The translations under genes were made by a program, and so were the position numbers. From Candidatus Magasanikbacteria bacterium RIFCSPHIGHO2_02_FULL_48_18 (GTDB lineage: Bacteria > Patescibacteriota > Patescibacteriia > Magasanikbacterales > UBA922): 64,000 bases of DNA. Positions 11,426 through 59,486 of the stretch are shown here, piece after piece. The notes beneath the pieces were generated by a model. It made no database searches and was not told the DNA's origin. It saw only the letters and a list, made by a program, of their open reading frames with translations. The stretch covers positions 90,599 through 154,598 of the forward strand of contig MFQC01000008.1 in NCBI GenBank assembly GCA_001784285.1, in the 5' to 3' direction. How positions within the stretch are numbered: the first letter of the stretch is position 1; each line of letters starts with the position of its first letter.

Positions 11426-14400
11426 TCATTCGCGTTTTTTTCGTATGATGCCAAGAAATACGACCCCCGCGCCTTGTATGATCCGTTTTACCGCCGCACC
11501 TCGAAAATGCAAAACAGCCGCGAGACCAAGAGAAAGAACGCCGCTTGCCAGAGCCGTACCGTATGATGACCCGGCATCATTTCCCGGAGCAAATGTTTGA
11601 ACAGCCAAAAAATCTTCTGTCTTTTCTGCCGCTTCTTCTTCATCATAAAAATCAATATCATCCAAAGAGCGAGGGAGCAAACGATATCCGGATTTGGTTT
11701 GGCTCACAACGCCAACCACCGAAACCGATTGGCCCGCGCGGATGTCTTTTCGCACAATGCCGGTTTCTTTTTTGATTGCAACCACGATTTCTCCTGTACC
11801 GTCGTCTACAATAATCGTGGAGCCGTTGCTTTCGGTGACATCTCCTTCAACTCGCGCGAGTCCTCCTTCAAAGGTTTCACCAATGTCGATAATGGGAACC
11901 GCGTCCGGATTGGGCGGAGCGAGGACGCCAATTTTTTCAATATCCGTTTCCTCGGCCACTTTGATCCGCGTTTCTCCCTGGATCTCAGATAATTCTCCGG
12001 ACACATTCACCAAATCGCCAACCGCAAGCTCTGGAAATTTTTTTGCGTGTTGATACACCTGCACCCCGCCCTGCTGTACTCCGTCGGCGATATTCACATC
12101 CATAATATACAAATACTGCGATCCCAAAATACCGGGCAACACAATAACGACTCCCTGCACGCGCACGCGATCGCCAATCTCGTACTCACGAATTTGTTCG
12201 AGTGTGGTATCAATACCGGAAAGCGGCACCGGGCCGCCCGATACGTTTGAGTTTGACACAGAAACCGACTGAAATACATTTTTAAATTCCGGCGTACTCT
12301 CCATGGTCCATGACCATTTTCCGTTTTCATCTGCCGCGTAAGACGCGCCTTCGGGCGGGCGGTCATACAACACTTCCTCTGCAACCGATCCATCCGGAAA
12401 AAACAACCGAACCGCGTCGGCATCGTTGTTGAGCGCTATTTTTGTGTCTCTTCGCTCAAAAACGATGTAGGACAGCGGATCAATCATGGTTCCTTCGGGA
12501 AAGACATATACCTGCGATCCGCCGTCTTCGTCGTCCAGAGCAAACCCGGAAATATCAACGGTCGAGGTGGAAAAATTGGCAAGTTCAATAAATTCTTCTT
12601 CATCAGAACCAATAGGGTTGGGAAGAAATTCGGAAATATGAACCATTACAGAAAATGAACTGGACGACTGCTGTTCACTCTTTGAAGAAATGCTCTTTTC
12701 TGCCGGTTGCGCTATTGAAAAAACATTTGATTTTCCCGGCGTCGGCGTTGCTGTCCAAAGCCACTCGTCGTCCGTATCAATGGAATAACTTTGCGCTTCC
12801 GGCGCAGGCCCGGAATACGCAACCGATTGAGCAATTACTCCTGTCGGTGACCGCAGACTAACCGTATCGCCGTCCCCATTATTGAGCACAATGCCGGTGA
12901 TATCGTTCGACAGAAGCAAAAAACTTTTTGCCGCAATGGTGGTTGTGGAAAAAGAAAATAATTTTCCCGATGCATCAACCAATGACCACCCGGAAAGATT
13001 TGCCGCCGCGGATGATGGATTATACAATTCAATAAATTCTTGCCCGCTGTCGTTGCCGTGCGGGTTGGGAAAAACTTCGCTCATAATGACCGGAGTTGTG
13101 GACGCCGCGGCGGTAGGGATAGATAAGAGAGACGGCGACGCCGTTGGCAAAATAACGATATTGACTGACCCCTTGGTAACAATGGTTGTCACGGCAAAAT
13201 CCGCGCTATCGGCATTGGTATCTTTTCCATCTCCAATACGAGCCAAGCTCCAGGGGTCGTCTGCTTTTGGCGCGTTATCCGACACATTCCCGTCATTCCA
13301 TGATCCGTAACAAACCCGGTCAATTTCTTTCCCGGTCGGATCCATAAGTCGAAGCAAATCGCCGGCATTATTCAAGCTTCCTTTCGGCTCTGCAAGAACA
13401 AAAAATTCATGCCCCCCAACCGAACCCTTCAACAGTGTTTTTGCCGTGCTTCCGTCTTCAGCCCACCAGCCATCGAGCATAATCGCCGCATTGTTTGGAT
13501 TATAAAATTCGACAAATTCTTCAGCTCCGTCCGCGGGATCGGACACCAATTCATTAATACGAATATCTCCAGGCTGAAAGCTGACTATATTCCCGAGAGA
13601 TCCGGTATTCCCCGAAGCGGGCGGTGGATTTTGCGCCGGAGATTCTAAATTTGTTTGCGGCGGGGCCACAATACTATTTGGCGCGCCCTTGGTCGGCGTT
13701 GTCGTGATGGCAAAGTCGGCTGAGTCGTTATTGGTATCCGCGCCATCCGCAATGCGGGCAACCGAATACGGATCGCCCGCGACCGGCGCAGTGACTGCTG
13801 TTGAAGATGCCACGTCCCCGAACACGCCATACGTCACGCTATCCGCCACCATTCCGCTTGGATCGGTAAACTGAATGCTGTCGCCCGCATTATTGAGCTT
13901 ATTGAACATTTCAAAAACGACAAATCCATTTCCTTCAATGGTCGTGGTCGGCGAGACAAGAACGCCGGCGCCATCGTGAATTTGCCATCCTATAAGGTCG
14001 GCGTCCGATGTTCCGGTATTGTATAGTTCAATCCATTCTTTTTCTCCGGATACGGGGTCGGAAACAAATTCATTGATGATAATAGCGGGAACGCCTTTAC
14101 TCGCCTCGCCACCATCAGCCGTGTCGGCGGGCGTACTTTCTTTTTTTGGCAATAATTGGGGCTTCCCGTATACGACCAAATTTTTTGACGCGACAGCCAT
14201 CGCGCCATGAACGTCACTCACCATAAGAGTCGCGACTATTTTGGCTGAGACGGAAAAAGTGTGAAAGACCGTACCCCCGCTGTCCTTTTGTCCATCGCCA
14301 AAATCCCAAGCGTATGAAAGCGCATCGCCGTCCGGATCGGTTGATGCGGACGCGTTGAAAAGAACAGGGTGATCCACCAAAAGAAGGCTTGGATACACGG

Positions 14401-29836: not shown

Positions 29837-32455
29837 ATGCCCGTGAAGACGACGCTGGTTCTTTTTGTTCTTCTTCTGGCGGCCCTGTTCGGGGCCTGCC
29901 GGGAGGAAGAAGTGGTCTACGACGCCCCCTACCTTGAGGTCTCGACCGAGTCGGACCTCGGGGTGGCGGCGCTGGATCTGACGTTCGTCCAGATCGCTGA
30001 GGGGCAGCGATATCTGGCGAACAAAGAGACCGGGGAGGGCTACTCGGTCGAGGTCGGATGGGATCTTCTCAAAAAGAAGTTCGTCATCCGGATCGATCGA
30101 AAGACCGGGGATCCGGACCACCCGCCGTTCATTCATGTCCTCAGCGCCACGGACGTGGTGTTTGAGGATACGGATGCGGCGTACGTCCACATCCTCGGTC
30201 GCAACACGGACGGGCAGGCCGTGGCAGTCGCGGGGTTCAAGCTGGACCTCACGCTCCAGGGACAGGTGCCGGTGACGCTCCAAGCGTTGGCCGGTAAATG
30301 CGACCTGGACGGCGACGGCACGCCGGATTGTGGGATTGATGGCTGCTGCGACGAGGACTACGAACCGTTCCTCGCCGACTGCAACGACAACGACCCGGCC
30401 GTGTCTCCCATCGCGTGGGAGATTCCGGCATGCGTGCCGTGCGAAAACATACCGGATTACTTCTGCCTTGGCAGCACGGCCTCGTACGAGTGCACGTGCC
30501 AGGCAGAAGCCGTGTGCAGCGCGGCATCGTGTGTTGCGGATGAGTGCCAAGAGACGGCGCTCGACTGCAACGACAACGACCCATGCACCACGGACGCGTG
30601 TGATCCGGCCACGGGTTGCACGGCCGTGCCCGTCGACTGCGATGACGACGAGGCCTGCACGGCAGACGCGTGTAATCCCAACACCGGTGTGTGCGAGTAC
30701 ACGCCCGCATGCGGGGATTGCGACACCAACGAGGAGTGCGACGACGAGAATCCGTGCACGGACGACCGGTGCGATGTGACGACTGGGGCGTGCGAGCATA
30801 CGCCCAATACGGCCACATGTAGCGACGGTAGCCTGTGCACGAAGAACGACGGGTGCATTGACGGGGAGTGCATTGGCACACCCATCAACTGCGAGGACGG
30901 CAGTGCGTGTACCACGGAAGACACCTGTCATCCCGGCACTGGCCTGTGCATTTACACGCAAGCCGACTGCGATGACGGTGTGGCGTGCACCGTTGACTCG
31001 TGCGATGTCGAGCTCGGATGCGTCAACACGCCGGACGACGGGACATGTCCGGACGGCGATCTGTGCGCCATCCCCACATGCGATGTGGCGGATGGGTGCA
31101 CGTACGTGCCGGTCGACTGTAACGACGGCAACGAGTGCACCACGGACGCGTGTGATCCGGAGACGGGCGATTGCATCCACATTCCGTCGTGTCCGATCTG
31201 TACGTCGGACGCGGAGTGCAACGACGACAATTCCTGTACGGACGACACGTGCGATCCGGCAACTGGGTGCGTCAACGTCGACAACACGGCGCCGTGCGAC
31301 GACGCGAACGCCTGTACCGAGGGCGACACGTGCCAGGGCGGCGAATGCGTCGGTGGGTCGCCTGCCGACTGCAACGACAACGACCCGTGCACGACAGACT
31401 CGTGCGATCCTGTCGAGGGGTGCGTCAATATGGGCGAGTGCCCGCCGTGCCTTTCGGACGCCGAGTGCGACGATGAGAACGTCTGCACGGATGACGCGTG
31501 CAACCCGGCCGTGGGTTGTATCAATACCCCGCAGAGCGGGGCGTGCGAGGACGGCAACGGGTGCACGGGAAACGACGCGTGCCAGGGCGGCACGTGCGTG
31601 GGCGGTACGCCGATCAACTGCGACGACGGGAACGCGTGCACGGCAGATGAGTGTTTTGGAGGAGGCTGCGTTCATAGCGCTTTCTCCTGCGACGACGGCA
31701 TTGCCTGCACCAACGACTCGTGCGACGCAGCCATCGGGTGCGTCAACGCACCGGTCAATGGCCTCTGCGACGATGGGGATGCGTGCACCCTTGACCTCTG
31801 CAGCGAAACAGAGGGGTGCCAGGCCCTGCCCATCGACTGCAACGACGGCAACGCGTGTACGGACGACGTCTGCGATCCGGTGCAGGGCTGCGTCTATACC
31901 TCGACCTGTCCGACGTGTGAGTCGGACGAGGAGTGTGACGACGGCAACCCGTGCACGGCAGACGCGTGCGACACGGTTCTTGGGTGCGTGAATGCCCTTC
32001 CGGACGATCCGGAAATCGACAGCATTTGCGCGCCCTGCGACGACGGCAACCCCTGCACCGTCCCCGATGTCAGTGGTCTCACGACCACGTGCGAGGACAT
32101 CGGGGTTGACCCCGCCGTAGGCGGGGGCGGGGCTTGCCTCACAACCGCGAACGCGGCCACCTCCGATTCACTCGGCTTTGTCTGCTTTGGAAAGACTCCA
32201 CCAAAACAGTATCAAGACGTGTGGATTGAGGTGGTTTCGGGCGTGCCCGGCACGCCCAAGTTCAAGGTTTCAAGCGGCGCCTACGTCTACATCGGCGCCG
32301 CGGACTCAATATCGATTCGGGTTTTGACCACCGGCACGTCGCCGGAGGTTGTGGACCCGATTGACTACGGCTGTCACTGCCTCGTGGGCGAGGTGGTCTC
32401 GGGCCAAAACATCGTGGTGGATGATAAGGGGCCGCTCCTTGTCTGTCCGCCATAA
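29837..32455 (+). CDS. Secreted lipoprotein (872 aa) made of ~30 tandem cysteine-rich repeats (C-[ND]-D-x-N-x-C-T-x-D-x-C-[DN]-P-x-x-G-C), with distinct N- and C-terminal domains
   Basis: Lipobox LLAALFGAC. More than 120 Cys residues in a regular ~19-20 aa periodicity. GC ~65% with GC3-biased codons, unlike the rest of the window. The repeats resemble myxobacterial-type Cys-rich repeat families. Confidence 0.85.
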   Translation: MPVKTTLVLFVLLLAALFGACREEEVVYDAPYLEVSTESDLGVAALDLTFVQIAEGQRYLANKETGEGYSVEVGWDLLKKKFVIRIDRKTGDPDHPPFIHVLSATDVVFEDTDAAYVHILGRNTDGQAVAVAGFKLDLTLQGQVPVTLQALAGKCDLDGDGTPDCGIDGCCDEDYEPFLADCNDNDPAVSPIAWEIPACVPCENIPDYFCLGSTASYECTCQAEAVCSAASCVADECQETALDCNDNDPCTTDACDPATGCTAVPVDCDDDEACTADACNPNTGVCEYTPACGDCDTNEECDDENPCTDDRCDVTTGACEHTPNTATCSDGSLCTKNDGCIDGECIGTPINCEDGSACTTEDTCHPGTGLCIYTQADCDDGVACTVDSCDVELGCVNTPDDGTCPDGDLCAIPTCDVADGCTYVPVDCNDGNECTTDACDPETGDCIHIPSCPICTSDAECNDDNSCTDDTCDPATGCVNVDNTAPCDDANACTEGDTCQGGECVGGSPADCNDNDPCTTDSCDPVEGCVNMGECPPCLSDAECDDENVCTDDACNPAVGCINTPQSGACEDGNGCTGNDACQGGTCVGGTPINCDDGNACTADECFGGGCVHSAFSCDDGIACTNDSCDAAIGCVNAPVNGLCDDGDACTLDLCSETEGCQALPIDCNDGNACTDDVCDPVQGCVYTSTCPTCESDEECDDGNPCTADACDTVLGCVNALPDDPEIDSICAPCDDGNPCTVPDVSGLTTTCEDIGVDPAVGGGGACLTTANAATSDSLGFVCFGKTPPKQYQDVWIEVVSGVPGTPKFKVSSGAYVYIGAADSISIRVLTTGTSPEVVDPIDYGCHCLVGEVVSGQNIVVDDKGPLLVCPP

Positions 32456-48013: not shown

Positions 48014-49588
48014 ATGCGCAAATTGCTTCTTCTCATTCTCGATGGATGGGGCATCAATACGAATTTAAAAAATAATGCGATTGCGGAAGCTAATCCATCT
48101 TTTTGGAATCATCTTGTACAAGAGTATCCGTTTAGCGCGCTCCATTGCCGTGAAGAATCAGTCGGCGTACCGAAGGGGTGTCTTTCCAACTCCGAAGTGG
48201 GCCACACCGCGATCGGCGCCGGACGGGTAGTGCCGCAGAGCGCGTTTGCGATTGATGAGGCAATTCAAAGCAAGGCATTTTTTGATAATCGTGTATTTGT
48301 AAAAATTCAAGAACACCACACGGCTTCTGGTGGCGCGCTCCACCTTGTCGGGCTTTTGAGTAATGGCGGCATTCATGGACATATTGATCATGTGATTGCG
48401 CTTTTGGAGTGGGCACAACAAAAAAAAATGGACAATGTGTTCCTCCATCTTTTTTTGGATGGCCGCGACATGCCGCCGATGAGCGCCCTTACTCTTTTGA
48501 AAAAATTGGAGCCGTTTCTGAATGATACCGTTCAGATTGCTTCTGTGTGCGGCCGGGCGATTGCCATGGATCGCTCGGAAACGTGGGAAAGAACGGTGAG
48601 TGCATATAATACACTGCTGGCTGTCCAGCCCCTTACCCCCCTCTTGATCTCCCACGCGGGGGAGGAGAGATTTGGCGCTTCTGCCATGGTTGAGATGAGC
48701 ACGATGAACGTAACAACATATATAGAACAGAATTATGCCGAAGGCGTGGGTGATGAATTTATCCAACCCGCTCGGTTTTGTGATGCGGGGATACAAGATA
48801 ACGACGCGGTGATCTTTTTTAATTTTCGCGCCGACCGCATGCGGCAAATGGTACGGTTGTTTTTGAAAAAAGCGCCGTCTGCAATACAACAGCATATTAT
48901 GGTGCCAAAAAATCTTTTTTTGTCAAGTCTGACGAGTTACAATGATGATTTTGACGCACACGTCATGCCTTTTTTTCCAAAAGAAATTCCAAAAAATAAT
49001 ATGGGAGAATGGCTCAGTACAAAAGGATTGACGCAGTTTCGCATTACGGAAACTGAAAAATACGCGCACGTCACATTTTTTTTCAATGGCGGGCAAGAAG
49101 TGACGTTTCCCGGAGAAGAACGGCTACTCATTCCATCGCTTGGCCTCGCCAATTACGCGTCGCATCCGGAAATGAGTTTGCCCGAAGTAACGACGTCACT
49201 CTGCCGCGTGCTCACGCAGGAGCGGTTTGATTTTGTGGTGTGCAATATTGCCAATGGGGATATGGTGGGGCATAGCGGCGACCTTACTGCCGGGATCCGG
49301 GCTGTACAGCACGTTGATACGGCGCTTTCCAAAATTGTGTCAAAAGCGGAAGCATGCGGGTATACGGTCGTGATCACGGCTGACCACGGTAATATTGAAT
49401 ATATGGAACACGAAGGAACACCGCATACCGCGCATACCTTCAACGACGTGCCATTTTTGGTGATTGGGCAAAACGTTTCTCTTGAAAAAAATGGTTATTT
49501 GCACCAGGTAGCACCAACGCTTCTCGAGCTTATGGGCATAGAAAAACCTGCCGAAATGACGAGTGAGTCGTTAATAATGACAAAATAA
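48014..49588 (+). CDS. gpmI: 2,3-bisphosphoglycerate-independent phosphoglycerate mutase
   Basis: N-terminus MRKLLLLILDGWGI and metal-binding DHGN / ADHGN motifs typical of iPGM. Confidence 0.9.
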   Translation: MRKLLLLILDGWGINTNLKNNAIAEANPSFWNHLVQEYPFSALHCREESVGVPKGCLSNSEVGHTAIGAGRVVPQSAFAIDEAIQSKAFFDNRVFVKIQEHHTASGGALHLVGLLSNGGIHGHIDHVIALLEWAQQKKMDNVFLHLFLDGRDMPPMSALTLLKKLEPFLNDTVQIASVCGRAIAMDRSETWERTVSAYNTLLAVQPLTPLLISHAGEERFGASAMVEMSTMNVTTYIEQNYAEGVGDEFIQPARFCDAGIQDNDAVIFFNFRADRMRQMVRLFLKKAPSAIQQHIMVPKNLFLSSLTSYNDDFDAHVMPFFPKEIPKNNMGEWLSTKGLTQFRITETEKYAHVTFFFNGGQEVTFPGEERLLIPSLGLANYASHPEMSLPEVTTSLCRVLTQERFDFVVCNIANGDMVGHSGDLTAGIRAVQHVDTALSKIVSKAEACGYTVVITADHGNIEYMEHEGTPHTAHTFNDVPFLVIGQNVSLEKNGYLHQVAPTLLELMGIEKPAEMTSESLIMTK

Positions 49589-49707
49589 ACCCCGCCATTG
49601 TGGAATGACGGGGCTGTGAGGTATTGAAGAACCCACCGTTGGATCCGCGTTGGGTCGCCTGCCCCGATGAACATCGGGGCGGAAGGCAGTGCGGTGGTGG
49701 GTGTGGT

Positions 49708-50076
49708 TCAGACGGGCGGCTCGGTCCCCTCGATGAACAAGAGGACCTTGTCTTGAGGGGAGAAAATACGGATCTTGTCCTCCCTGGTGCGCTGCGGAAT
49801 TGGTCCATAGATCTGGCGGGCGATGCCGGCCGCCGCGCCGGTGATCTTCACATAAACCGGCCATGCGAATGGGTCACCTCCATTCCAGACGGCGAAGACC
49901 GCATTGCTGGCCAGGAGACCAAACTTGGTCTCCTTTTGCACGGCGTAGAACTGGTCGGGTACGCCAGCGGTCAGTCTTCCGTCCTTGTCAGCGAGGTCCT
50001 CGCGCACCTTTTTTTTGATTCCATTGAAATAGACAGCCGCCCCCTGGTTGATTTCTCTGAATTTTTTTGTCGGCAC
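49708..50076 (-). CDS. Hypothetical protein (122 aa) in a GC-rich mini-islet
   Basis: Only protein-like ORF in the ~500-bp ~60% GC segment between gpmI and the ABC-2 cluster. The overlapping plus-strand ORF is low-complexity and G/R/D-rich, suggesting antisense. No family recognised. Confidence 0.4.
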   Translation of the reverse strand: MPTKKFREINQGAAVYFNGIKKKVREDLADKDGRLTAGVPDQFYAVQKETKFGLLASNAVFAVWNGGDPFAWPVYVKITGAAAGIARQIYGPIPQRTREDKIRIFSPQDKVLLFIEGTEPPV

Positions 50077-50199
50077 GACCTTCTCTCTCCTTGCCCATTT
50101 TGGGCGGTTGATTTGGTGGATTTATATACAAAAAAAAGTCTGCTGTCAAGAGGAAGGGAGGTTCGGACAAGATAGGTTGTTTTTGGTATACTTTGCCCC

Positions 50200-51003
50200 A
50201 TGTCATTCACAGCTAAAAAATATTTCACAACGTATAAAAATTCCCTGAGCCAATTTTTTCAATATCGGCTCAATTTGGGTTTGCTTGTGGTGAGCCATGT
50301 GGTGAGTTTGAGCGGTCTTATTTATTTGTGGATCGCGGTGTATGCGGCCGGGCAAACCGTAGGGACATATTCGCTTGAGCATATATTGGTGTATTACATT
50401 GTGTTGACTATTTTGCATATTACCATTTCGGAAGGGGTGGGGATGGGATTTGAAGTCTCGGATCATATCAAAGATGGCGTCGTGACGAATTATCTCGTCA
50501 AACCGTTCAGCTACTCCATTGAACGGCTGGTAAAAATGCTCGGGCAGGTGACGATCAATGTTTTTTTTATTATTCCGGTTATCGCAGTTCTTCTCATTAT
50601 CAAGCCGGACAGCATCCCATCGCCGTCTATCCTCCAATGGATGCAATTCGCAGGCATGGCGTTTATTGGCCTTCTGTTTTATTTTCTTTTGTATTATGCG
50701 GCCGCGCTGTCTTCTTTTTGGCTTCACCAGGGGCGTGCAATGGTATTTGCATTATTGTTGACGAGCAATTTGCTCAATGGTTCTCTTCTCCCGCTCGATA
50801 TGTTTCCGGACTGGTTTCAAAAATTGAGCCGCGTGTTGCCATTTACGTATTTGATTTTTTTGCCAATCCAAACCCTTCTCGGCCGGATTGAGGGGTGGGG
50901 ATTCTTGCTTTTGGTTGCGTGTCTCTGGGCTCTTGGCTTGTCTTTATTTATTTTTTTGATTTGGAAACGGGGAATTCGACGGTTTGAAGCGGTGGGAAGA
51001 TAA
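50200..51003 (+). CDS. ABC-2 family transporter permease, type A paralogue (copy 1)
   Basis: ~6-TM 267-aa protein ending ...WKRGIRRFEAVGR. Paralogous to 51817.. and 53425.. Confidence 0.75.
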   Translation: MSFTAKKYFTTYKNSLSQFFQYRLNLGLLVVSHVVSLSGLIYLWIAVYAAGQTVGTYSLEHILVYYIVLTILHITISEGVGMGFEVSDHIKDGVVTNYLVKPFSYSIERLVKMLGQVTINVFFIIPVIAVLLIIKPDSIPSPSILQWMQFAGMAFIGLLFYFLLYYAAALSSFWLHQGRAMVFALLLTSNLLNGSLLPLDMFPDWFQKLSRVLPFTYLIFLPIQTLLGRIEGWGFLLLVACLWALGLSLFIFLIWKRGIRRFEAVGR

Positions 51004-51018
51004 ATGTGAAGAAATTGT

Positions 51019-51807
51019 ATGACGAAGTATATACGATTATATGGCGCGTTTTTTCGCGCCAATTTCATGAAGGCGACTGCGTATCGAGGCAATTTTTGGC
51101 TGTATGTCCTATTGACCGCGCTCGAATCTATGACCGTCTATATTGCCATTGCGGTATTGTTTCTCCATGTAGAGACAATCGCGGGGTGGAGCTATCATGA
51201 CATGTTGGTTCTGAGTGGTATTTTTATTATCACGAACGGTTTGTCATGGATATTGTTTCGCGCGAGTGTGATGCAGTTGGATCAAATGATTACGAGCGGA
51301 GATTTGGATGGAAAACTCACAAAGCCGGTTGACGCACAGTTTTTGGTGTCGGTCGAGCGCATTGATATTGAAGACGTGGGGAGGTCCTTTGTGGGTATTG
51401 GCATACTGTGGCTCGGGCTTCGGGGAACGCCGCTGTTTTCGTTCGCGACCGCGTTGCCGTTTTTTTTGATTATGCTTGTTTCCGGACAGATTATTTTATA
51501 TAGCATTATGCTCCTCGTCAAAGTCATCAGTTTTGCGTCGATCCAAGGGTGGTCAACCAATGCAATTTCCTGGCGGTTTCATGACCTTTCTCGGTATCCC
51601 ACCGACATCTATACGGGTATGATGCGGGTGATCTACACCTTTGTTTTTCCGCTTGTTTTTATTGCAACCGTTCCGGCCAAGGCGCTCATTGGGCGATTGA
51701 CTATGCCATTCTTTTTTGGCTCGCTCGTTGCCGCCGCAATGAGTTTTGCCGTGGTTCGTTTTTTTTGGGTGCGAGCATTGCAAAAGTACACGAGCGCTTC
51801 AAGCTGA
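51019..51807 (+). CDS. ABC-2 family transporter permease, type B paralogue (copy 1)
   Basis: 262-aa 6-TM protein ending ...RALQKYTSASS. Paralogous to 52642.. and 54228.. Confidence 0.75.
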   Translation: MTKYIRLYGAFFRANFMKATAYRGNFWLYVLLTALESMTVYIAIAVLFLHVETIAGWSYHDMLVLSGIFIITNGLSWILFRASVMQLDQMITSGDLDGKLTKPVDAQFLVSVERIDIEDVGRSFVGIGILWLGLRGTPLFSFATALPFFLIMLVSGQIILYSIMLLVKVISFASIQGWSTNAISWRFHDLSRYPTDIYTGMMRVIYTFVFPLVFIATVPAKALIGRLTMPFFFGSLVAAAMSFAVVRFFWVRALQKYTSASS

Positions 51808-51816
51808 TTTTTTTCT

Positions 51817-52617
51817 ATGCGACCATATATCTCCGCTTTTCGCATGAGCTTGTCCGAACAGGTAACATACCGATTTGGATTTTTCTTTGCGCGTCTCCGC
51901 GGGCTGTTTGTGCTCGTCACTTTGTTTTTTGTGTGGTCGGCCGTGAGCATGAAAACCGGCTTTTTTGCCGGCTATTCGCGCGAGGAACTCATGACGTATG
52001 TGTTTGGCGCTCATATATTGCGTTCGCTGGTTTTTGGATCGCAATCGCGAAGAATCGCATCCGAAATTCATGATGGAACGTTTTCGCTTTTTTTGGTTCG
52101 GCCGGTGAATCATTTTCTTTTTTATTATGCGCGTGAGCTCTCGGAACGATTGCTCCTTGGTTTTTTTGCCGTTTTGGAAGTGGGTATCATAGTGGTTTTT
52201 TTTGATAGTACATTTCTTTTTCCCAGCCATCTCTCTGTTTTCTTTTTTGTCTTTCTGTCGGTATTTTTGTCGCATATGTTGTATTATTGCATGAGCTATG
52301 GCATGAGCATGCTCGCATTTTGGTCGCGCGAGGCCATGGGGCCGCGATTTCTTTTTGAGTGGATTTTGGAATTTTTGTCCGGCGCGTTTTTTCCAGTTTC
52401 GATTGTCGCCACCAATGTTGCTCTCGTTTTTTTGTTTTTTGCCCTTCCATTCATCTACCTTGTCTTTATGCCGCTCACGATCTATCTTGAGCGAGTGCCG
52501 GGGAATCAGCTGTTTCTTTCTTTTGTGTGGCAAGGGATGTGGATTGCGATTGTTGCGGGCCTTCTTCGCGCGCTATGGCGGCGGGGATTGAGGGCATATA
52601 CGGGGGAAGGGATATAG
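51817..52617 (+). CDS. ABC-2 family transporter permease, type A paralogue (copy 2)
   Basis: 266 aa, C-terminus ...WRRGLRAYTGEGI. Confidence 0.75.
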   Translation: MRPYISAFRMSLSEQVTYRFGFFFARLRGLFVLVTLFFVWSAVSMKTGFFAGYSREELMTYVFGAHILRSLVFGSQSRRIASEIHDGTFSLFLVRPVNHFLFYYARELSERLLLGFFAVLEVGIIVVFFDSTFLFPSHLSVFFFVFLSVFLSHMLYYCMSYGMSMLAFWSREAMGPRFLFEWILEFLSGAFFPVSIVATNVALVFLFFALPFIYLVFMPLTIYLERVPGNQLFLSFVWQGMWIAIVAGLLRALWRRGLRAYTGEGI

Positions 52618-52641
52618 GGATATACTGACAAATAGACATGT

Positions 52642-53421
52642 ATGAAATACGTTCGCGTGTGGGTCCAATTGGTTCATTGCGCATTTTCAAGTTATGCATC
52701 AAACCGCATTGATGCAGGTTCTTATTTTTTGGGCAAACTGATTCGTTTTGGCTTTTTTTGGCTGTTTTTTATTTCGCTTTTTCATTATACGGATTCTTTT
52801 GCCGGCTACACCAAGTGGGAAACGCTTCTCTTTTTTGTCACGTTCAATCTGGTGGATGTATTGGGCCAGGCATTGTTTCGCGGCATTTATTTATTTCGCA
52901 ACGATATACGCAAAGGAAATTTTGATTGTATTCTTGTGAAACCGCTCAATAGTCTTTTTTATATTCTTTCTCGCTTAACAGATATCCTGGATATTTTATT
53001 TTTGGCGCCGCTTGGTGTTGCATTGTGGTATGTGGTTATTCATTTGCCACCGCTTCCGGCCGCATCCTTTTTTTTGTATGCGTTATTTTTGTTCGTTGGC
53101 CTTGTCATTGTGCTTGGCATTCACATTCTTTCCGCCGCGCTCACCATATGGAGCATGGAAAGCGAGGGGATGATTTGGTTTTATCGCGACGCAACCGCGA
53201 TTGGGCGGTTTCCGCCGGAGATATTTTCCAAGCCCATTCAATTTGTTTTTACGTTTTGTTTGCCCATTATCGTCATGGTTGCGTTTCCAGTCAAAATGAT
53301 GCTTGGGGCGCTCCCGCTTTTTTGGGCCATGATGGGGTGTATTATTGCGTTGGTTTTTTTGATTGGAGCGCTTGTTTCGTGGCGCGTCAGTGTGAGGCGA
53401 TATTCCAGCGCTTCAAGTTAG
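52642..53421 (+). CDS. ABC-2 family transporter permease, type B paralogue (copy 2)
   Basis: 259 aa, C-terminus ...VRRYSSASS. Confidence 0.75.
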   Translation: MKYVRVWVQLVHCAFSSYASNRIDAGSYFLGKLIRFGFFWLFFISLFHYTDSFAGYTKWETLLFFVTFNLVDVLGQALFRGIYLFRNDIRKGNFDCILVKPLNSLFYILSRLTDILDILFLAPLGVALWYVVIHLPPLPAASFFLYALFLFVGLVIVLGIHILSAALTIWSMESEGMIWFYRDATAIGRFPPEIFSKPIQFVFTFCLPIIVMVAFPVKMMLGALPLFWAMMGCIIALVFLIGALVSWRVSVRRYSSASS

Positions 53422-53424
53422 GAC

Positions 53425-54231
53425 ATGCATATGAGCATATCAAAATATTGGCAACTCAATAAAACGTTTCTCCAGCGCCATATTGCGTATCGCGCGCGGG
53501 TGAGTATTTGGATTATTGCGGATGTCGCCAATTTTTTGGTATTTCCGTTTGTGTGGCTCGCCGTCTATGGCTCGCGGGAAACGTTGGCCGGGTATGCCAA
53601 GGCGGACATGGTGACGTATTATATGGTGATTATGTTTATCAGCGTCGCATGCACGTCTCATATTTCCCGGCACATGAAAGACGATATTATCAAAGGAAAT
53701 TTGAATGCCATTTTGGTCCAGCCCATGCGATATTTATTTTTTCGCACCATTCACGAAGTAAGCTATCGTATTCTGGCGACAGGTATTGCTATAGCGCTTT
53801 TTGGCGCGGCATTTTTTCTTTTTCCCGCCTATATGCGGTTTCCATCGTCTCCGGCATCGCTGATTTTTTTTCTTCTTTCATTATTTTTTTCATTTTATTT
53901 TTCACACCTTATGCAATTGTTTGTGGGCTTATCGTCGTTTTGGCTTGGAGATAATACCGGGCCGGACCGTCTGCGCCATATCGTTGAAAAAGTTTTTTCC
54001 GGAGAAATTGCGCCACTGGTCTTTTTTCCGCCCCTTCTTCAATCCATCGCGGGTATATTGCCATTTCAATTTTTGTCATACGTTCCGGCGCAGATATTTG
54101 TCGGCCAGCTCACTATGCAAGAAATGCGGCATGTGGTGTTTATTGCATCCATGTGGGCGGCCGGATTAAGCGTGTTTGTCCTTTTTTTGTGGCGGCGAGG
54201 AGTGCGCCGGTATGATGGCGTTGGCATATGA
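53425..54231 (+). CDS. ABC-2 family transporter permease, type A paralogue (copy 3)
   Basis: 268 aa, C-terminus ...WRRGVRRYDGVGI. Confidence 0.75.
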   Translation: MHMSISKYWQLNKTFLQRHIAYRARVSIWIIADVANFLVFPFVWLAVYGSRETLAGYAKADMVTYYMVIMFISVACTSHISRHMKDDIIKGNLNAILVQPMRYLFFRTIHEVSYRILATGIAIALFGAAFFLFPAYMRFPSSPASLIFFLLSLFFSFYFSHLMQLFVGLSSFWLGDNTGPDRLRHIVEKVFSGEIAPLVFFPPLLQSIAGILPFQFLSYVPAQIFVGQLTMQEMRHVVFIASMWAAGLSVFVLFLWRRGVRRYDGVGI

Positions 54232-55016
54232 AAACCTATTGGAACATCTATACAGTCTTTGTGCAAAACGGCGTGTCGTATCTTGCTCAATATCGCAAAG
54301 ACGCGTGGTGGAACGTTGCGGTCAATGTGTTGTGGGTGGGCATGCTCTTTTTGATTGTGGAAGTGATATTTTCTCAGACCGCGACCATTGTGGGATGGAA
54401 AAAAGAGGAAGTGTATCTGTTGACCATCCTCTGGACCATTGTGAGTGAAGCCTTTGTCATGATTTTTGGCGGCAATACCCAGCAGATTCCGCACATGATT
54501 ACCGACGGCGACCTGGATATTTTTCTCACCAAGCCGGCCAATACATTATTTTTGGTCAGCACCCGTTTTTTTCTGTTCCGCGCGTTTTACCGGCTTCTCG
54601 CGGACTTTGGTATTTTGGCATGGATTGTGTGGCGATTTGACGTTGGTGTCTCACTGCCGCATGCGGTTCTTGCTTTTTTTCTTGTTGTGTGCGGGATTAT
54701 AGTCCATTTTTCGATGACGCTTCTGGCCAATACGCTAAGTTTTTGGTTTTTGCGCATTGACAATGTCAATGACACCCTTGTGTCGCTCCACACCTTGGGG
54801 AGGTATCCAATCGATGTGTTTCCAAAAACACTGAAAATACTTCTTTTGACTGCGCTTCCTATGGCCTTTAGCGGATATATTCCGGTTGCCGTCCTTACCG
54901 GTCGGTGGCCGTGGTATGCGGTTGGGTATGCTGTGTGCTTTACGGCCGCATTTTTTTGCCTCGCAGTCCGGTTCTGGTCTTTTGCCCTGAAACGATATTC
55001 GAGCGCGTCGAGTTAG
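54228..55016 (+). CDS. ABC-2 family transporter permease, type B paralogue (copy 3)
   Basis: 262 aa, C-terminus ...LKRYSSASS. The start overlaps the preceding gene by 4 nt. Confidence 0.75.
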   Translation: MKTYWNIYTVFVQNGVSYLAQYRKDAWWNVAVNVLWVGMLFLIVEVIFSQTATIVGWKKEEVYLLTILWTIVSEAFVMIFGGNTQQIPHMITDGDLDIFLTKPANTLFLVSTRFFLFRAFYRLLADFGILAWIVWRFDVGVSLPHAVLAFFLVVCGIIVHFSMTLLANTLSFWFLRIDNVNDTLVSLHTLGRYPIDVFPKTLKILLLTALPMAFSGYIPVAVLTGRWPWYAVGYAVCFTAAFFCLAVRFWSFALKRYSSASS

Positions 55017-55096
55017 CGCGAGACACCGTCAATTTTGCTCTATTCAGGCTAAAATGTTCATGGTATAGTACTGTGTACCTGCCTATTCTCTGTCTT

Positions 55097-56074
55097 ATGC
55101 CAATTATCAACGTCAACCATCTTTCAAAAACGTACGAATATTATAAAAAACAAGCCGGGCTTTGGAATTCAGTCAAAAGTCTTTTCCACAGAGAAAAATT
55201 GTTTACCGTAGCGGTGAACAATATCTCTTTTTCCATTGAAACCGGAGAAATGGTTGGTTTTTTGGGTCCAAACGGCGCAGGAAAGACGACGACCCTCAAA
55301 ATGCTTTCCGGCATCTTGTACCCCACGAGCGGCGAAGCATCGGTCTTGGGATATACGCCATGGAAGCGGCAGAAAGAATTTCAAAAACAGTTTGCCATTG
55401 TGATGGGACAAAAAAATCAGTTGTGGTGGGATTTGCCGGCAATGGAAAGCTTTATTTTGAACAAAGAGATTTATGAAGTGCCGGATGCGCAATTCAAGAA
55501 AACATTGGACGAATTGGCGGTATTGCTTGACATTACCGAAATTCTCGATGTGCAGGTGCGAAAATTATCCCTGGGCCAGCGCATGAAGTGCGAGCTCGTC
55601 GCCGCGCTCTTGCATTCGCCGAAAGTGCTGTTTTTGGACGAACCGACGATTGGGCTTGACGTTGTATCACAAAATAACATCCGAGAATTTTTAAAAAAAT
55701 ACAATCGAGAGAAACATGTCACCATTGTCCTCACATCGCATTATATGGAAGATGTCGAAGCATTGTGCGAGCGCGTGATCATTATTAATTATGGAGCACT
55801 GATGTACGATGGGGGTCTTGTGGAGTTATTGAACCGGTATATTGACCATAAATTGCTTGAGGTCACGTTTACCGAAAAAGTATCGGCGGATCAATTGAAA
55901 AAGTTGGGGAAAATCAAGGAACGGACCCCGCAACGCGTCGTGCTGGAAGTGCCAAAGTCAAACGCCAAGCATGTCGCCGCGTCTATGCTGACCCAGTTGC
56001 CGGTTGATGACATTCTTATCAACGAGGTGCCGATTGATGACGTCATTCGGAAAATATTTCAAGAAAAACGATAA
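55097..56074 (+). CDS. ABC transporter ATP-binding protein (ABC-2 type), the single ATPase of the permease array
   Basis: Walker A GPNGAGKTTT, signature LSLGQRMK, Walker B VLFLDEPTIGLD. Start taken at MPIINVNHLSKTY. Confidence 0.9.
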   Translation: MPIINVNHLSKTYEYYKKQAGLWNSVKSLFHREKLFTVAVNNISFSIETGEMVGFLGPNGAGKTTTLKMLSGILYPTSGEASVLGYTPWKRQKEFQKQFAIVMGQKNQLWWDLPAMESFILNKEIYEVPDAQFKKTLDELAVLLDITEILDVQVRKLSLGQRMKCELVAALLHSPKVLFLDEPTIGLDVVSQNNIREFLKKYNREKHVTIVLTSHYMEDVEALCERVIIINYGALMYDGGLVELLNRYIDHKLLEVTFTEKVSADQLKKLGKIKERTPQRVVLEVPKSNAKHVAASMLTQLPVDDILINEVPIDDVIRKIFQEKR

Positions 56075-56078
56075 ATAT

Positions 56079-57140
56079 ATGCAGACAACCAATAAAATGA
56101 GCTTTGGAAAAATGCGGTCGGTATTTTTCTTTTTGCTCATCGTTCTCTTATCCATTGCAATGTTGTATTTGTTTCGGCCGTTTTTTTATCCCATTTTTTG
56201 GGCCGCGGTTATTGCCGTCATGTTTTATCCGTTTTATGCGTGGCTCAATCGGTATATCAAAGCAAAGGGATTCAATGTGTTTCTTACCATTATTCTCGTT
56301 ATTGCCGCGGTGCTCATGCCACTGTTGTTGGTTGGTATTTTGGTTGTGGACCAATCGATTGACGTGTACCGTTCCATCGATTCCGACGATTTGCGGGAAG
56401 CCTTGAACACGGCAAGCACATGGGTGGAAGGCACACCGTTTGGCCCGTATGCGGAAACGGTTCAGCGGGAATGGCCAGCCTACGCCAGCAAGGCCGCAAA
56501 AGGCATTAGCACTGCCATCTTTACGAGCGTGAAGAGTATTACGCAAAATTCCGTACGCTTTATTGTGATGCTCTTTATCATGTTTTATTCCCTGTATTAT
56601 TTTCTTCGCGATGGAAAACAGGCACTCCTCAGACTTATGCATCTCTCGCCGCTCGGCGATGTATATGAAGAAATGCTGTATGAACGGTTTACATCCACGG
56701 TCCGAGCAACTATGAAGAGCACGCTTATTGTAGGCGGTATTCAAGGAACAATTAGCGGCATTCTCTTTTGGATTGCCGGTGTTGAGGGGGCCTTTATCTG
56801 GGGAGTAATTATGATTATTCTCGCCATTATTCCCGCCGTTGGCCCGGCCCTTATTCTCGGTCCTGCGGCCATTATTATGCTTATTTTGGGCCAGGTGCCG
56901 CAGGGGCTCGTTCTTCTTTTTGGCGCGATTGTCGTGAGTCTTGTTGATAATTTTCTCCGTCCGATGTTTGTGGGAAAAGATATTGAGATGCATCCGCTGA
57001 TTGTTTTCTTCGCAACGCTTGGGGGCATTTTTCTCTTTGGGGTTTCAGGTTTTGTAATTGGTCCCATTATCGCCGCGCTGTATATTTCCATTATGTCAAT
57101 TTATGAGCATTATTATCGCAATGAATTGCAGAATAACTAG
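56079..57140 (+). CDS. AI-2E family transporter (UPF0118 / PerM-like)
   Basis: 8-TM protein with the typical N-terminal FFYPIFWAAVIAVMFYPFYAWL and the conserved central region of AI-2E family members. Confidence 0.8.
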   Translation: MQTTNKMSFGKMRSVFFFLLIVLLSIAMLYLFRPFFYPIFWAAVIAVMFYPFYAWLNRYIKAKGFNVFLTIILVIAAVLMPLLLVGILVVDQSIDVYRSIDSDDLREALNTASTWVEGTPFGPYAETVQREWPAYASKAAKGISTAIFTSVKSITQNSVRFIVMLFIMFYSLYYFLRDGKQALLRLMHLSPLGDVYEEMLYERFTSTVRATMKSTLIVGGIQGTISGILFWIAGVEGAFIWGVIMIILAIIPAVGPALILGPAAIIMLILGQVPQGLVLLFGAIVVSLVDNFLRPMFVGKDIEMHPLIVFFATLGGIFLFGVSGFVIGPIIAALYISIMSIYEHYYRNELQNN

Positions 57141-57153
57141 AAAAGTGCAGGAT

Positions 57154-58875
57154 TTATTGCCGCCAATAATACTCTATCATTTGGATAGTAAAGTTTTTGT
57201 CTTTGGCTTGTGGTATCAGTTCTTCGAGTTCAGAGCGCAGAATGGTTTCGTATAATTTGGATTTTGAAAAGTGAGCCCACTGGAAAGAGCCTGTGTAGTC
57301 GGTGAGAATTATTTTTCCTCCGCCATCTGGGAAATGATCTATCCAAACATGGTCCAATCTCACCTTCTTTTTCTTTAAGGTTTCATCTATTGCCTCTTTG
57401 AGGGCTTCGCCGGCGATGTCGGAAGACGCATTTTTTTGAAGTTCACGCAGTTCTTTTTTCATAGACTCGCTCAATTTTATTTCCTGTTCAAACATTTCTT
57501 CCGTATCGCCGAGGCTATCTTTAATCGTGTTTGTGCGGAAACGCCTTCCAGAATTTCCGACTGGTATTGCCGATTCATTTTTTACCAATCTTTGCCAATT
57601 GGCCACATTCGCTTTCACTTTTCCCGACCATATTTTCGTGCCGCTCGTCCCAAGAGCAGTGCGCAATTTTTTGGCTGCTTCTTTTGGATTCAGTTTTTTT
57701 AACTCTTCAATTTCATTGAGCTGTTTCATCAAATCAGCTTTTGCTTTTCGCATAGCGGCCATGTCCTGTTCTGCTTGTTTGATAATTTGTTCCAGATGCA
57801 ATGATTTTTCCGTTTTTTTAGCAAGAGCGAGCGAGCGCTCTATCTTTGCCTCGGCTTGCGCGAAGTGCTCCGTGAATTTTTCTATCCCTTTTTTGCTTGC
57901 CTTTACGCCGCCGCCTGCAACCGGAACAAAATCCAAAACCGTCATTATGGAATGCCCGAGAAAGCCGCTTAAGCCGCCGATTCGTGTCAGCGTATCCGCG
58001 GATGGATCCAAAAAAATCTCCAAATTCGCATTGGCTTCGGTGATGTTTTCTCTCGGATTTGGAATAAAAAAATTGAGGCTGTTGGACATTTTGGCTATGA
58101 TCAAAGAGGCAACTGGATTGATTGTTATTGTCATACGCTTGCTTCCCGTATTCTCTAAATCTTTGAATTTATTGAGAATCCAAGATTCTCCGATAGAAGA
58201 GGGGTCTTCAAAAGTTTTTCTGACTATAGCAAACGGGGCGAAGATGGATACTGTTGTGGCCTCTTCTTTAGTAAGAGTGTGTGCATTTCCAGTGGGATGA
58301 CCGTCGGCATCTTTGAGAGTGACGAGAGGTATTTTGCCGTCTTGACTGGTTCTGAGCCAGTTTGTGTGCGCGCTGTCGTCAAAAATTGAAATTTTGGTTT
58401 TACCATCGTCATCAGTCCATTGGACAAGGGAAAACCAATACGACGCGCCTAAAAAAAATTCAATAGTCGGCAGTATATCACCCCAATCCACCAATACAGC
58501 GGAGTATATACATGGAAGTTTTTCTAAGCGAACAGCAAAAACAATCCCAGCCGCTTGCAAGTCGCTGGGCAATTTTTCGTCGAGTTCAGCCATTTCGGAA
58601 AAAAAATTTGGCCGACGGGAAAATGTCTCGGTTTTAATAGCTTCTGTCAATGCCTCTAGGCCGGTCTCATCCTGGTTTATCTCTTCGTCACGCAGTAGAT
58701 ACGCTTCAAACTTTACCACATTCCATTCTTCGGCGATGTTATATATGCTTGCGTGAAATTTATTTGGTTCGGCAATAGAATAATTTATTTTGAAAGTTAC
58801 CTTGTATTCATCATCACCGTCATATGCCAGTTCTCCGCTCATGTTTAATGCTGAACGTTTATTTTTTTCTGACAT
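57154..58875 (-). CDS. Hypothetical cytoplasmic protein (573 aa): N-terminal globular domain, Gly-rich segment, central ~120-aa coiled coil and a C-terminal domain containing HVWIDHFPDGGGK
   Basis: Long uninterrupted ORF with no signal peptide or TM segment. Heptad-like K/E/A-rich stretch (residues ~320-450). No known family recognised. Confidence 0.6.
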   Translation of the reverse strand: MSEKNKRSALNMSGELAYDGDDEYKVTFKINYSIAEPNKFHASIYNIAEEWNVVKFEAYLLRDEEINQDETGLEALTEAIKTETFSRRPNFFSEMAELDEKLPSDLQAAGIVFAVRLEKLPCIYSAVLVDWGDILPTIEFFLGASYWFSLVQWTDDDGKTKISIFDDSAHTNWLRTSQDGKIPLVTLKDADGHPTGNAHTLTKEEATTVSIFAPFAIVRKTFEDPSSIGESWILNKFKDLENTGSKRMTITINPVASLIIAKMSNSLNFFIPNPRENITEANANLEIFLDPSADTLTRIGGLSGFLGHSIMTVLDFVPVAGGGVKASKKGIEKFTEHFAQAEAKIERSLALAKKTEKSLHLEQIIKQAEQDMAAMRKAKADLMKQLNEIEELKKLNPKEAAKKLRTALGTSGTKIWSGKVKANVANWQRLVKNESAIPVGNSGRRFRTNTIKDSLGDTEEMFEQEIKLSESMKKELRELQKNASSDIAGEALKEAIDETLKKKKVRLDHVWIDHFPDGGGKIILTDYTGSFQWAHFSKSKLYETILRSELEELIPQAKDKNFTIQMIEYYWRQ

Positions 58876-58880
58876 AGACG

Positions 58881-59486
58881 TTATGTATAATTTCTCGCCT
58901 CGGATGCGACCTCGGCAAGCAGAGTTTTATAAAAAACACAACCACCCGTTAACTTTATGGGCTGCTGTTTCAGGGTGATAGGGAAGACAAGTGTTTTTTT
59001 GTTTTTCAGCCACACGAAATCCACCGTGAGTTTGCGAGCCGCTGACGCAAATTTTGGAATTTTAAGAATGTACTCATACCTGCCAGGCTCTTTTGATTCG
59101 CTTTTCCCTTTATCAAATTCAAGGGCCACCCGAGTGACGCCGACATAAGCGCTGTTTGATGATTGACCCTCCGCCACATCCATGAAACCCAAATTCATAG
59201 ACCACGATAAAAGCGCAAGTCCTGCGGGATCAGATCTTTTAAGCATTTTGATGTTGGCGCGCGCTATATGTGGATTGTAGTCTTCTCCAAAGCATATTTT
59301 TATTTTTCCATCGTCTTGAATTTCAAGAGAGGGCGAGAAAGAGATTTCTCCTTTCAGAAGAGCGTTCCCGTCGCCTATAATTCCACCATCATCCAAAAGT
59401 GGCGTATTTCCATACGTGATGGTAAATTTTTTTGCAGTAGGAGAATATCTCATGCCGGCGATCCAAACCGATTTTTTTTGAGGCAT
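58881..59486 (-). CDS. Hypothetical cytoplasmic protein (201 aa), probably translationally coupled partner of the 573-aa protein
   Basis: ORF ending 5 nt before the start of 57154..58875 on the same strand. No recognisable family. Confidence 0.55.
   Translation of the reverse strand: MPQKKSVWIAGMRYSPTAKKFTITYGNTPLLDDGGIIGDGNALLKGEISFSPSLEIQDDGKIKICFGEDYNPHIARANIKMLKRSDPAGLALLSWSMNLGFMDVAEGQSSNSAYVGVTRVALEFDKGKSESKEPGRYEYILKIPKFASAARKLTVDFVWLKNKKTLVFPITLKQQPIKLTGGCVFYKTLLAEVASEARNYT

Follow-up and report, generated by a model that had tools for sequence, protein, structure and literature searches.

Six DUF990/EVE-family permease genes followed by one ABC ATPase gene in Candidatus Magasanikbacteria: a putative shared-motor exporter array

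Introduction

In the usual description of ATP-binding cassette (ABC) exporters of the ABC-2 or type V kind, each ATPase has a single membrane unit of its own. In a 64-kb stretch of DNA from Candidatus Magasanikbacteria bacterium RIFCSPHIGHO2_02_FULL_48_18, which lives in groundwater and has a tiny genome (contig MFQC01000008.1; the whole stretch analyzed is called the window here), six permease genes of two alternating types, A and B, are followed by one ATPase gene. How could one ATPase serve three permease pairs, and how old is the arrangement? An earlier sequence-only reading of the locus had offered two answers, diversified specificity sharing one motor and a recent amplification of the pair. 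From sequence comparison, we consider it rather probable that three diverged heterodimeric modules of the DUF990/EVE family are co-expressed with one ATPase and give three transporters with one motor. The evidence for this proposal, and the alternatives to it, are presented below.

The gene array

The six permease genes occupy positions 50200-55016 of the forward strand as uninterrupted, head-to-tail open reading frames (ORFs) in the order A-B-A-B-A-B (Table 1). All of them match PF06182 (ABC2_membrane_6, formerly DUF990) with 64-154 bits, well above the gathering cut-off of 22 bits, and no NCBIfam model matches any of the six. The two subunit types can be told apart by their C-terminal tails, W(K/R)RG(I/L/V)R(R/A)(F/Y)..(V/E)G. 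in type A and Y(T/S)SASS in type B. The intergenic gaps from A1 to A3 are 15, 9, 24, and 3 nucleotides (nt), A3 and B3 overlap by 4 nt, and a spacer of 80 nt separates B3 from the ATPase gene. The catalytic motifs of the ATPase are readable in its translation (Walker A GPNGAGKT, signature LSLGQ, Walker B LFLDEPT, and H-loop TSH). Its start in the NCBI gene call is at the position equivalent to 55097; a longer GTG-initiated ORF from 54905, which overlaps B3, is unlikely to be real.

With a hidden Markov model (HMM) built from the family, no further PF06182-like ORF was found in the window, and the window contains no second cognate ATPase. Near both ends of the window there are ABC ATPases, two in all, that are unrelated to it; the other ATPases of the window score at most 43 bits against the array ATPase or are part of a MacB/FtsX system. 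The six alternating permeases, the type-specific tails, and the single ATPase downstream of them were thus as the sequence-only reading had described. That reading had also named two ways in which it could fail, namely that the copies are frameshifted pseudogene fragments or that the region is an assembly artefact. None of the six copies is frameshifted, and at least four independent assemblies, made from different samples and held by NCBI, ENA, and JGI, share the identical six-plus-one layout; B3 occurs on at least 24 contigs. The annotated close relatives of the window are Candidatus Magasanikbacteria, within the Patescibacteria.

Table 1. Coordinates of the array genes and of adjacent features in the window
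Feature	Position	Strand	Remarks
A1, type A permease, module 1	50200..51003	+	267 amino acids (aa); PF06182 64 bits; all family-invariant residues kept
B1, type B permease, module 1	51019..51807	+	262 aa; PF06182 154 bits
A2, type A permease, module 2	51817..52617	+	266 aa; PF06182 86 bits
B2, type B permease, module 2	52642..53421	+	259 aa; PF06182 125 bits
A3, type A permease, module 3	53425..54231	+	268 aa; PF06182 78 bits; stop overlaps B3 start (ATGA)
B3, type B permease, module 3	54228..55016	+	262 aa; PF06182 148 bits
Cognate ABC ATPase	55097..56074	+	325 aa; PF00005; likely ATG start 55097
AI-2E family transporter	56079..57140	+	PF01594 174 bits; starts 4 nt past ATPase stop
Promoter-like site CGGACA-17-TATACT, TG-extended -10 TGGTATACT	50164..50192	+	consensus scan; ends 7 nt before A1 start; function inferred
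TGGTATAGT, extended -10-like, in 80-nt spacer	55061..55069	+	27 nt before ATPase start; weak candidate

The array in other Patescibacteria

The window array was compared with a set of 81 species-level loci (designated by L numbers), in which ORFs were called and 230 permeases were detected by HMM and then clustered. Permease orthogroups were formed by average linkage; single linkage at 150 bits had merged several A-type groups. The ATPase is 63-82% identical across 80 species-representative Patescibacteria genomes, and the groups with the conserved ATPase include Magasanikbacteria, Uhrbacteria, Kerfeldbacteria, Falkowbacteria, Moranbacteria, Parcubacteria, and Gracilibacteria. The array is fully contained in 63 loci, of which 28 have two permease genes, 8 have three, 21 have four, and 6 have six. 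The sequence-only reading took one A-B pair per ATPase as the norm. This holds outside the phylum but not within the Patescibacteria, where the permease genes number three or more in 35 of the 63 complete loci. Judged by these comparisons, the window array is one state of a phylum-wide modular system and not a singular oddity.

The orthogroups travel as adjacent pairs. A1-B1 was found 13 times, A2-B2 23 times, and A3-B3 23 times, and no cross-partner adjacency was found among the six types defined by the window; this pattern is expected for co-evolving cognate partners. Rarer B-type groups sometimes follow (A3-b5 three times, A3-b9 once, and A1-b11 twice), and several rarer permease pairs exist beside modules 1-3. 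The module order of the six-gene arrays varies: it is 1-2-3 in the window and in L010, 1-3-2 in L038, 3-3'-1 in L016, 1-2-a1a1 in L054, and 2-a1a1-a1a1 in L086. The full 1-2-3 set has been retained in L010, a second species, with 40-57% identity.

Exactly one cognate ATPase (>450 bits), always 3' of the array, was found in each of the 81 loci by a search that covered 10 kb on either side of the array, and the gaps inside the arrays of L017, L086, and L073 contain no hidden ATPase genes. The position next to the ATPase can be taken by any module type. Moreover, for each module there are loci in which no other pair accompanies the orthologous ATPase, namely L020 and L075 for module 1, L018 and L053 for module 2, and L032, L033, L036, L041, and L044 for module 3. 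Because each of them occurs in this way, each module can presumably work with the ATPase. With a median identity of 77%, the ATPase is much better conserved than the adjacent AI-2E gene (54%) and the permeases (37-51%).

Eight loci have an odd permease count (L011, L019, L023, L030, L049, L050, L063, and L068). In these, a lone permease of a type called a1 adjoins the ATPase (in L030, it is upstream of A3-B3), and a1-a1 doublets are found in other loci. This suggests that the a1 permeases form a homodimeric or homotypic module beside the heterodimeric ones. In L010, a separate small ABC-2 system lies downstream of the 1-2-3 array on the opposite strand (11747-13289, minus strand of that locus); its permease is PF06182-like but divergent, and its ATPase has a score of 153 bits.

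Age of the permease pairs

The copies in the window are only distantly related to each other. BLAST scores are 78-119 bits between A copies, 72-112 bits between B copies, and 26-60 bits between A and B, and any two copies have a global protein identity of 17-29% and a DNA identity of about 50%, near background. Pairs 1 and 3 are mutually closest (119 bits for A1-A3 and 112 bits for B1-B3). The identity of the window copies to their own orthologues in other Patescibacteria reaches 57%. Orthologues of A1 were found in 14 other species (29-57% identity), of B1 in 23 species (27-57%, always preceded by an A1-like gene), of A2 in 22 species (35-53%), of B2 in 24 species (38-57%), and of A3 in 27 species (26-52%); those of B3 are 37-53% identical in 24 species loci and 40-55% identical in a database search. 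Because the paralogues share 17-29% and the orthologues a median of 37-51%, the split into modules is older than speciation. A recent amplification, the second proposal of the sequence-only reading, predicts the opposite relation and is refuted.

The split between the two subunit types predates the phylum. The A and B HMMs derived from the window cleanly separate both permeases of canonical operons in three other phyla, and the C-terminal tails match.

Predicted fold and conserved positions

An AlphaFold2 model of B3 was built from a 54-sequence alignment, with a predicted local distance difference test (pLDDT) score of 92.3 and a predicted template modelling (pTM) score of 0.89. It has an N-terminal surface helix and six long transmembrane (TM) helices, with short helices between TM2 and TM3 and between TM5 and TM6. 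When the model was compared with the PDB by Foldseek, the top 13 matches were chains of Wzm, TarG, and KpsM (Foldseek probability about 1.00, TM-scores 0.53-0.65), followed by NosY and ABCG transporters. A sequence search of the PDB with B3 gave no match, even at E = 10. B3 is predicted to adopt the fold of type V exporters. The ATPase domain is closest by sequence to the nucleotide-binding domains (NBDs) of the ABCA type.

The best-conserved positions across the modules (in B3 numbering) are Y4, Y22-R23, I91, G94, L96, L100, K102, P103, F172-W173, P194, P211, P219, G225, W250, and the Y257-S261 tail. The motif I-x-x-G-x-x-x-x-x-L-x-x-P and all other family-invariant residues are kept in all six window permeases. 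In the B3 model, this motif (I91-P103) is located in the cytoplasmic TM2-TM3 loop. The coupling helix of type V exporters sits in the TM2-TM3 loop in the structures of Wzm and TarG. The sequence-only reading had proposed to check conservation of the coupling helix, and the motif at this place is kept in all six permeases. Retention of the motif matches what is expected if all six permeases dock on the same ATPase.

Relation to known systems

By sequence homology, the window array is assigned to the DUF990/EVE family (TCDB 3.A.1.141). EvrABC/EVE, which consists of a COG4586 ATPase and COG4587 and COG3694 permeases, falls in the same Pfam family, PF06182. The EVE-family operons of Chloroflexota, Bacillota, and Pseudomonadota have the same two subunit types with the same C-terminal tails, and the window ATPase, a NatA/COG4586-like protein with intact catalytic motifs, has a full-length identity of 44-54% to its counterparts from canonical operons in other phyla. 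The canonical EVE operon has the order ATPase-A-B with one pair, whereas that of the window is (A-B)x3-ATPase; the two differ in architecture and not in homology. Canonical ATPase-A-B operons were found on plasmids of Chlorohelix (Chloroflexota), Bacillus mycoides, and Bradyrhizobium, and 48 of 49 plasmid records had a single match. Synechocystis EvrABC exports viologens, which are the only studied substrates of the family, and ppGpp riboswitches control operons of the DUF990/EVE family in some Firmicutes. Homologues of evrABC in some Patescibacteria are merely mentioned in one paper. We found no published description of multi-pair DUF990 arrays in Patescibacteria, a weak negative as the subscription literature was thinly covered.

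The canonical operons of the Bacillus mycoides plasmid p210 (L088) and of the Bradyrhizobium plasmid (L089) are embedded in natural-product clusters. One cluster contains queCDE/folE together with glycosyltransferase, carbamoyltransferase, and PIG-L genes, and the other contains nonribosomal peptide synthetase (NRPS) and MbtH genes. This points to a role of the family in self-resistance or export outside the Patescibacteria.

The predicted fold of B3 resembles that of the lipid-linked glycan exporters Wzm-Wzt, TarGH, and KpsMT in its N-terminal interface helix, six TM helices, and short outer-face helices. However, the transmembrane domains (TMDs) of Wzm, TarG, and KpsM form homodimers, each ATPase having a single TMD gene, whereas the window has two subunit types, and these proteins have no detectable sequence similarity to B3. 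The window ATPase has no recognised carbohydrate-binding domain.

ATPases that serve more than one membrane unit are known from importers. Group II energy-coupling factor (ECF) transporters use a shared energising module. MsmX, MsiK, and MsmK are multitask ATPases of type I importers, in which one ATPase energises several membrane units. Both kinds are importers of a different fold with substrate-binding or S components, whereas the window genes encode an exporter-type fold. In addition, the shared ATPase of importers is usually encoded apart from the permeases, whereas all membrane units and the ATPase are in one operon in the window.

One ATPase for three permease pairs

Four lines of evidence led us to the shared-motor model: the one-ATPase rule, the occurrence of each module alone, the co-inheritance of cognate A and B genes, and the precedent of the multitask ATPases of importers. 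In this model, each cognate A-B pair would bind a dimer of the single ATPase, and the three resulting transporters would differ in their translocation pathway and have the motor in common. As alternative membrane units, the pairs would probably use the motor in turn. The ATPase would have to be in excess if each pair is to obtain one dimer. The modules would be old orthologous groups that were gained, lost, and reordered among Patescibacteria genomes. The proposal of diversified specificity sharing one motor, made by the sequence-only reading, fits all of the comparative evidence, from which we infer physical sharing of the ATPase, cognate pairing, and distinct substrates.

Several points weigh against this model. 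Binding of the ATPase to all three pairs is suggested by comparison of sequences among genomes, and the ATPase search of this genome was confined to the 64-kb window. Conservation of a cytoplasmic motif is expected in any functional member of the family. The high conservation of the ATPase would suit a hub protein, but it is not specific evidence for sharing because NBDs are generally more conserved than TMDs.

The subunits might instead mix, A of one module with B of another in up to nine combinations, or form a larger assembly on one ATPase. The docking motifs and tails are common to all A and B subunits, the genes are co-transcribed, and the lone a1 permeases and a1-a1 doublets of relatives indicate that the pairing rules are not rigid. 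Nevertheless, we consider mixing rather unlikely, given that A and B of each module are inherited as adjacent units (13, 23, and 23 times) with zero cross-partner adjacencies among the six window types.

It is quite improbable that one pair only (for example, the ATPase-proximal A3-B3) works and that the others are redundant or being lost. A single pair suffices in 28 of the 63 complete loci, and the variable module content implies frequent loss. However, the six ORFs are intact with every family-invariant residue kept, orthologues of modules 1 and 2 are conserved across several Patescibacteria lineages, and the 1-2-3 set kept by L010 at 40-57% identity implies long-term purifying selection.

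We also judge it very unlikely that some of the pairs are energised by another ATPase encoded elsewhere in the genome. The 64 kb of the genome that were examined leave room for one, and two unrelated ABC ATPases occur near the window ends. Against this, no second cognate ATPase is present within 10 kb on either side in the 81 loci, the other window ATPases score at most 43 bits or are of the MacB/FtsX kind, and every module is found alone with the orthologous ATPase.

That one A-B pair was recently amplified in tandem, or that its copy number was collapsed or expanded in assembly, has nothing but the tandem A-B-A-B-A-B layout in its favor and is refuted by the 17-29% protein and about 50% DNA identity of the copies, the separate orthologues of each copy in other species, and the repetition of the layout in independent NCBI, ENA, and JGI assemblies.

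The observation of the array is solid and general across the phylum, and the principle of a shared motor already has a precedent. If the shared-motor model is true, the principle would extend from importers to the type V exporter fold, in an arrangement that recurs phylum-wide in many combinations. The module orthogroups also provide testable units for the DUF990/EVE family, for which there are almost no functional data.

Glycan-assembly genes and possible substrates

In 50 of the 81 loci, the array is flanked by glycan-assembly genes (Wzx-like, GT1, GT2, Wzy_C, or UppS). The glycan cluster contains a Wzx-like Polysacc_synt gene, GT1 and GT2 genes, a Wzy_C (O-antigen-ligase-like) gene, and sometimes an undecaprenyl-diphosphate synthase (UppS) gene. 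Loci with the cluster are L011, L022, L023, L032, L033, L041-L046, L049, L052, L054, L059-L074, L081, and L082. The Wzy_C protein is encoded in 30 loci, and in roughly two-thirds of these its gene is the first or second one downstream of the ATPase; some Wzy_C genes are located just upstream of the array, and there are two mirror-image cluster arrangements. UppS is found beside the array in the closest relatives of the window. We found no description of a Patescibacteria glycan cluster around such an array in the literature, in which our coverage of subscription journals was incomplete.

The Wzm-like fold of B3 and the glycan-assembly neighbourhood in relatives raise the idea that the array moves lipid-linked glycans or envelope precursors. 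Two points stand against it. There are no glycan-assembly genes in the whole 64-kb window, and for this reason we regard the idea as tentative, with the balance of evidence somewhat against it. In addition, natural-product clusters are the setting of the family in other phyla, and the single member that has been studied is a viologen exporter. The more specific notion, that cassette-like modules on one ATPase move different lipid-linked glycans or envelope precursors and that module content sets the cell-surface chemistry of these epibiotic bacteria, is doubtful; if it held, no shared-motor arrangement would have been described before for type V (Wzm-like) ABC exporters. Patescibacteria are host-dependent bacteria with very small genomes, and their envelopes are poorly understood. 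Variable modules beside glycan-assembly genes would offer a lead to how these bacteria build or vary their surface.

At 57154-59486 on the minus strand, the window has two ORFs of 573 and 201 aa with no Pfam match, which adjoin a gene for a 773-aa BNR/sortilin-repeat protein. In the closest relatives, their place after the AI-2E gene is taken by UppS. Most other assemblies call the 573-aa gene with 562 aa, but L005 has 573 aa.

Promoter-like elements and neighboring genes

A generic promoter and terminator scan gave counts no higher than those of shuffled sequence, and TGGTATANT alone stood out. It has six copies in the window (at 3361, 3755, 11369, 16689, 50184, and 55061) against 0.77 expected. 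Of these copies, at least four precede likely start codons by 7-27 nt, one is inside an ORF, and one could not be resolved. TGGTATANT looks like the extended -10 promoter element of this organism, with very short or absent leaders. The copy in the spacer before the ATPase gene, TGGTATAGT, might possibly be a separate internal promoter for the ATPase; the strict motif is found in the equivalent spacer of 11 of 68 related loci, which is not convincing conservation.

Control of the array by a riboswitch or leader RNA was considered and rejected, as no Rfam match was found upstream. At the gathering threshold, Rfam detected four tRNAs and nothing else in the window, and nothing credible in 49500-50300. 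The gap before the operon is unusually long (610 nt, 49589-50199). It holds a GC-rich ORF of 122 aa on the minus strand (49708-50076), which has no Pfam match and is called as a gene in other assemblies.

The AI-2E family transporter gene that follows the ATPase gene is possibly co-transcribed with the array. As a core partner of the system it was rejected, since it is directly downstream in just 19 of 76 related loci, all of them closest relatives. Far upstream, at 29837-32455 on the plus strand, lies a gene for a secreted protein of 872 aa made of Cys/Asp-rich repeats (D-x-N-x-C-T-x-D-x-C-D-P-x-x-G-C). This repeat gene accounts for a block of 64% GC at 30-32 kb in a window that otherwise has 43-51% GC.

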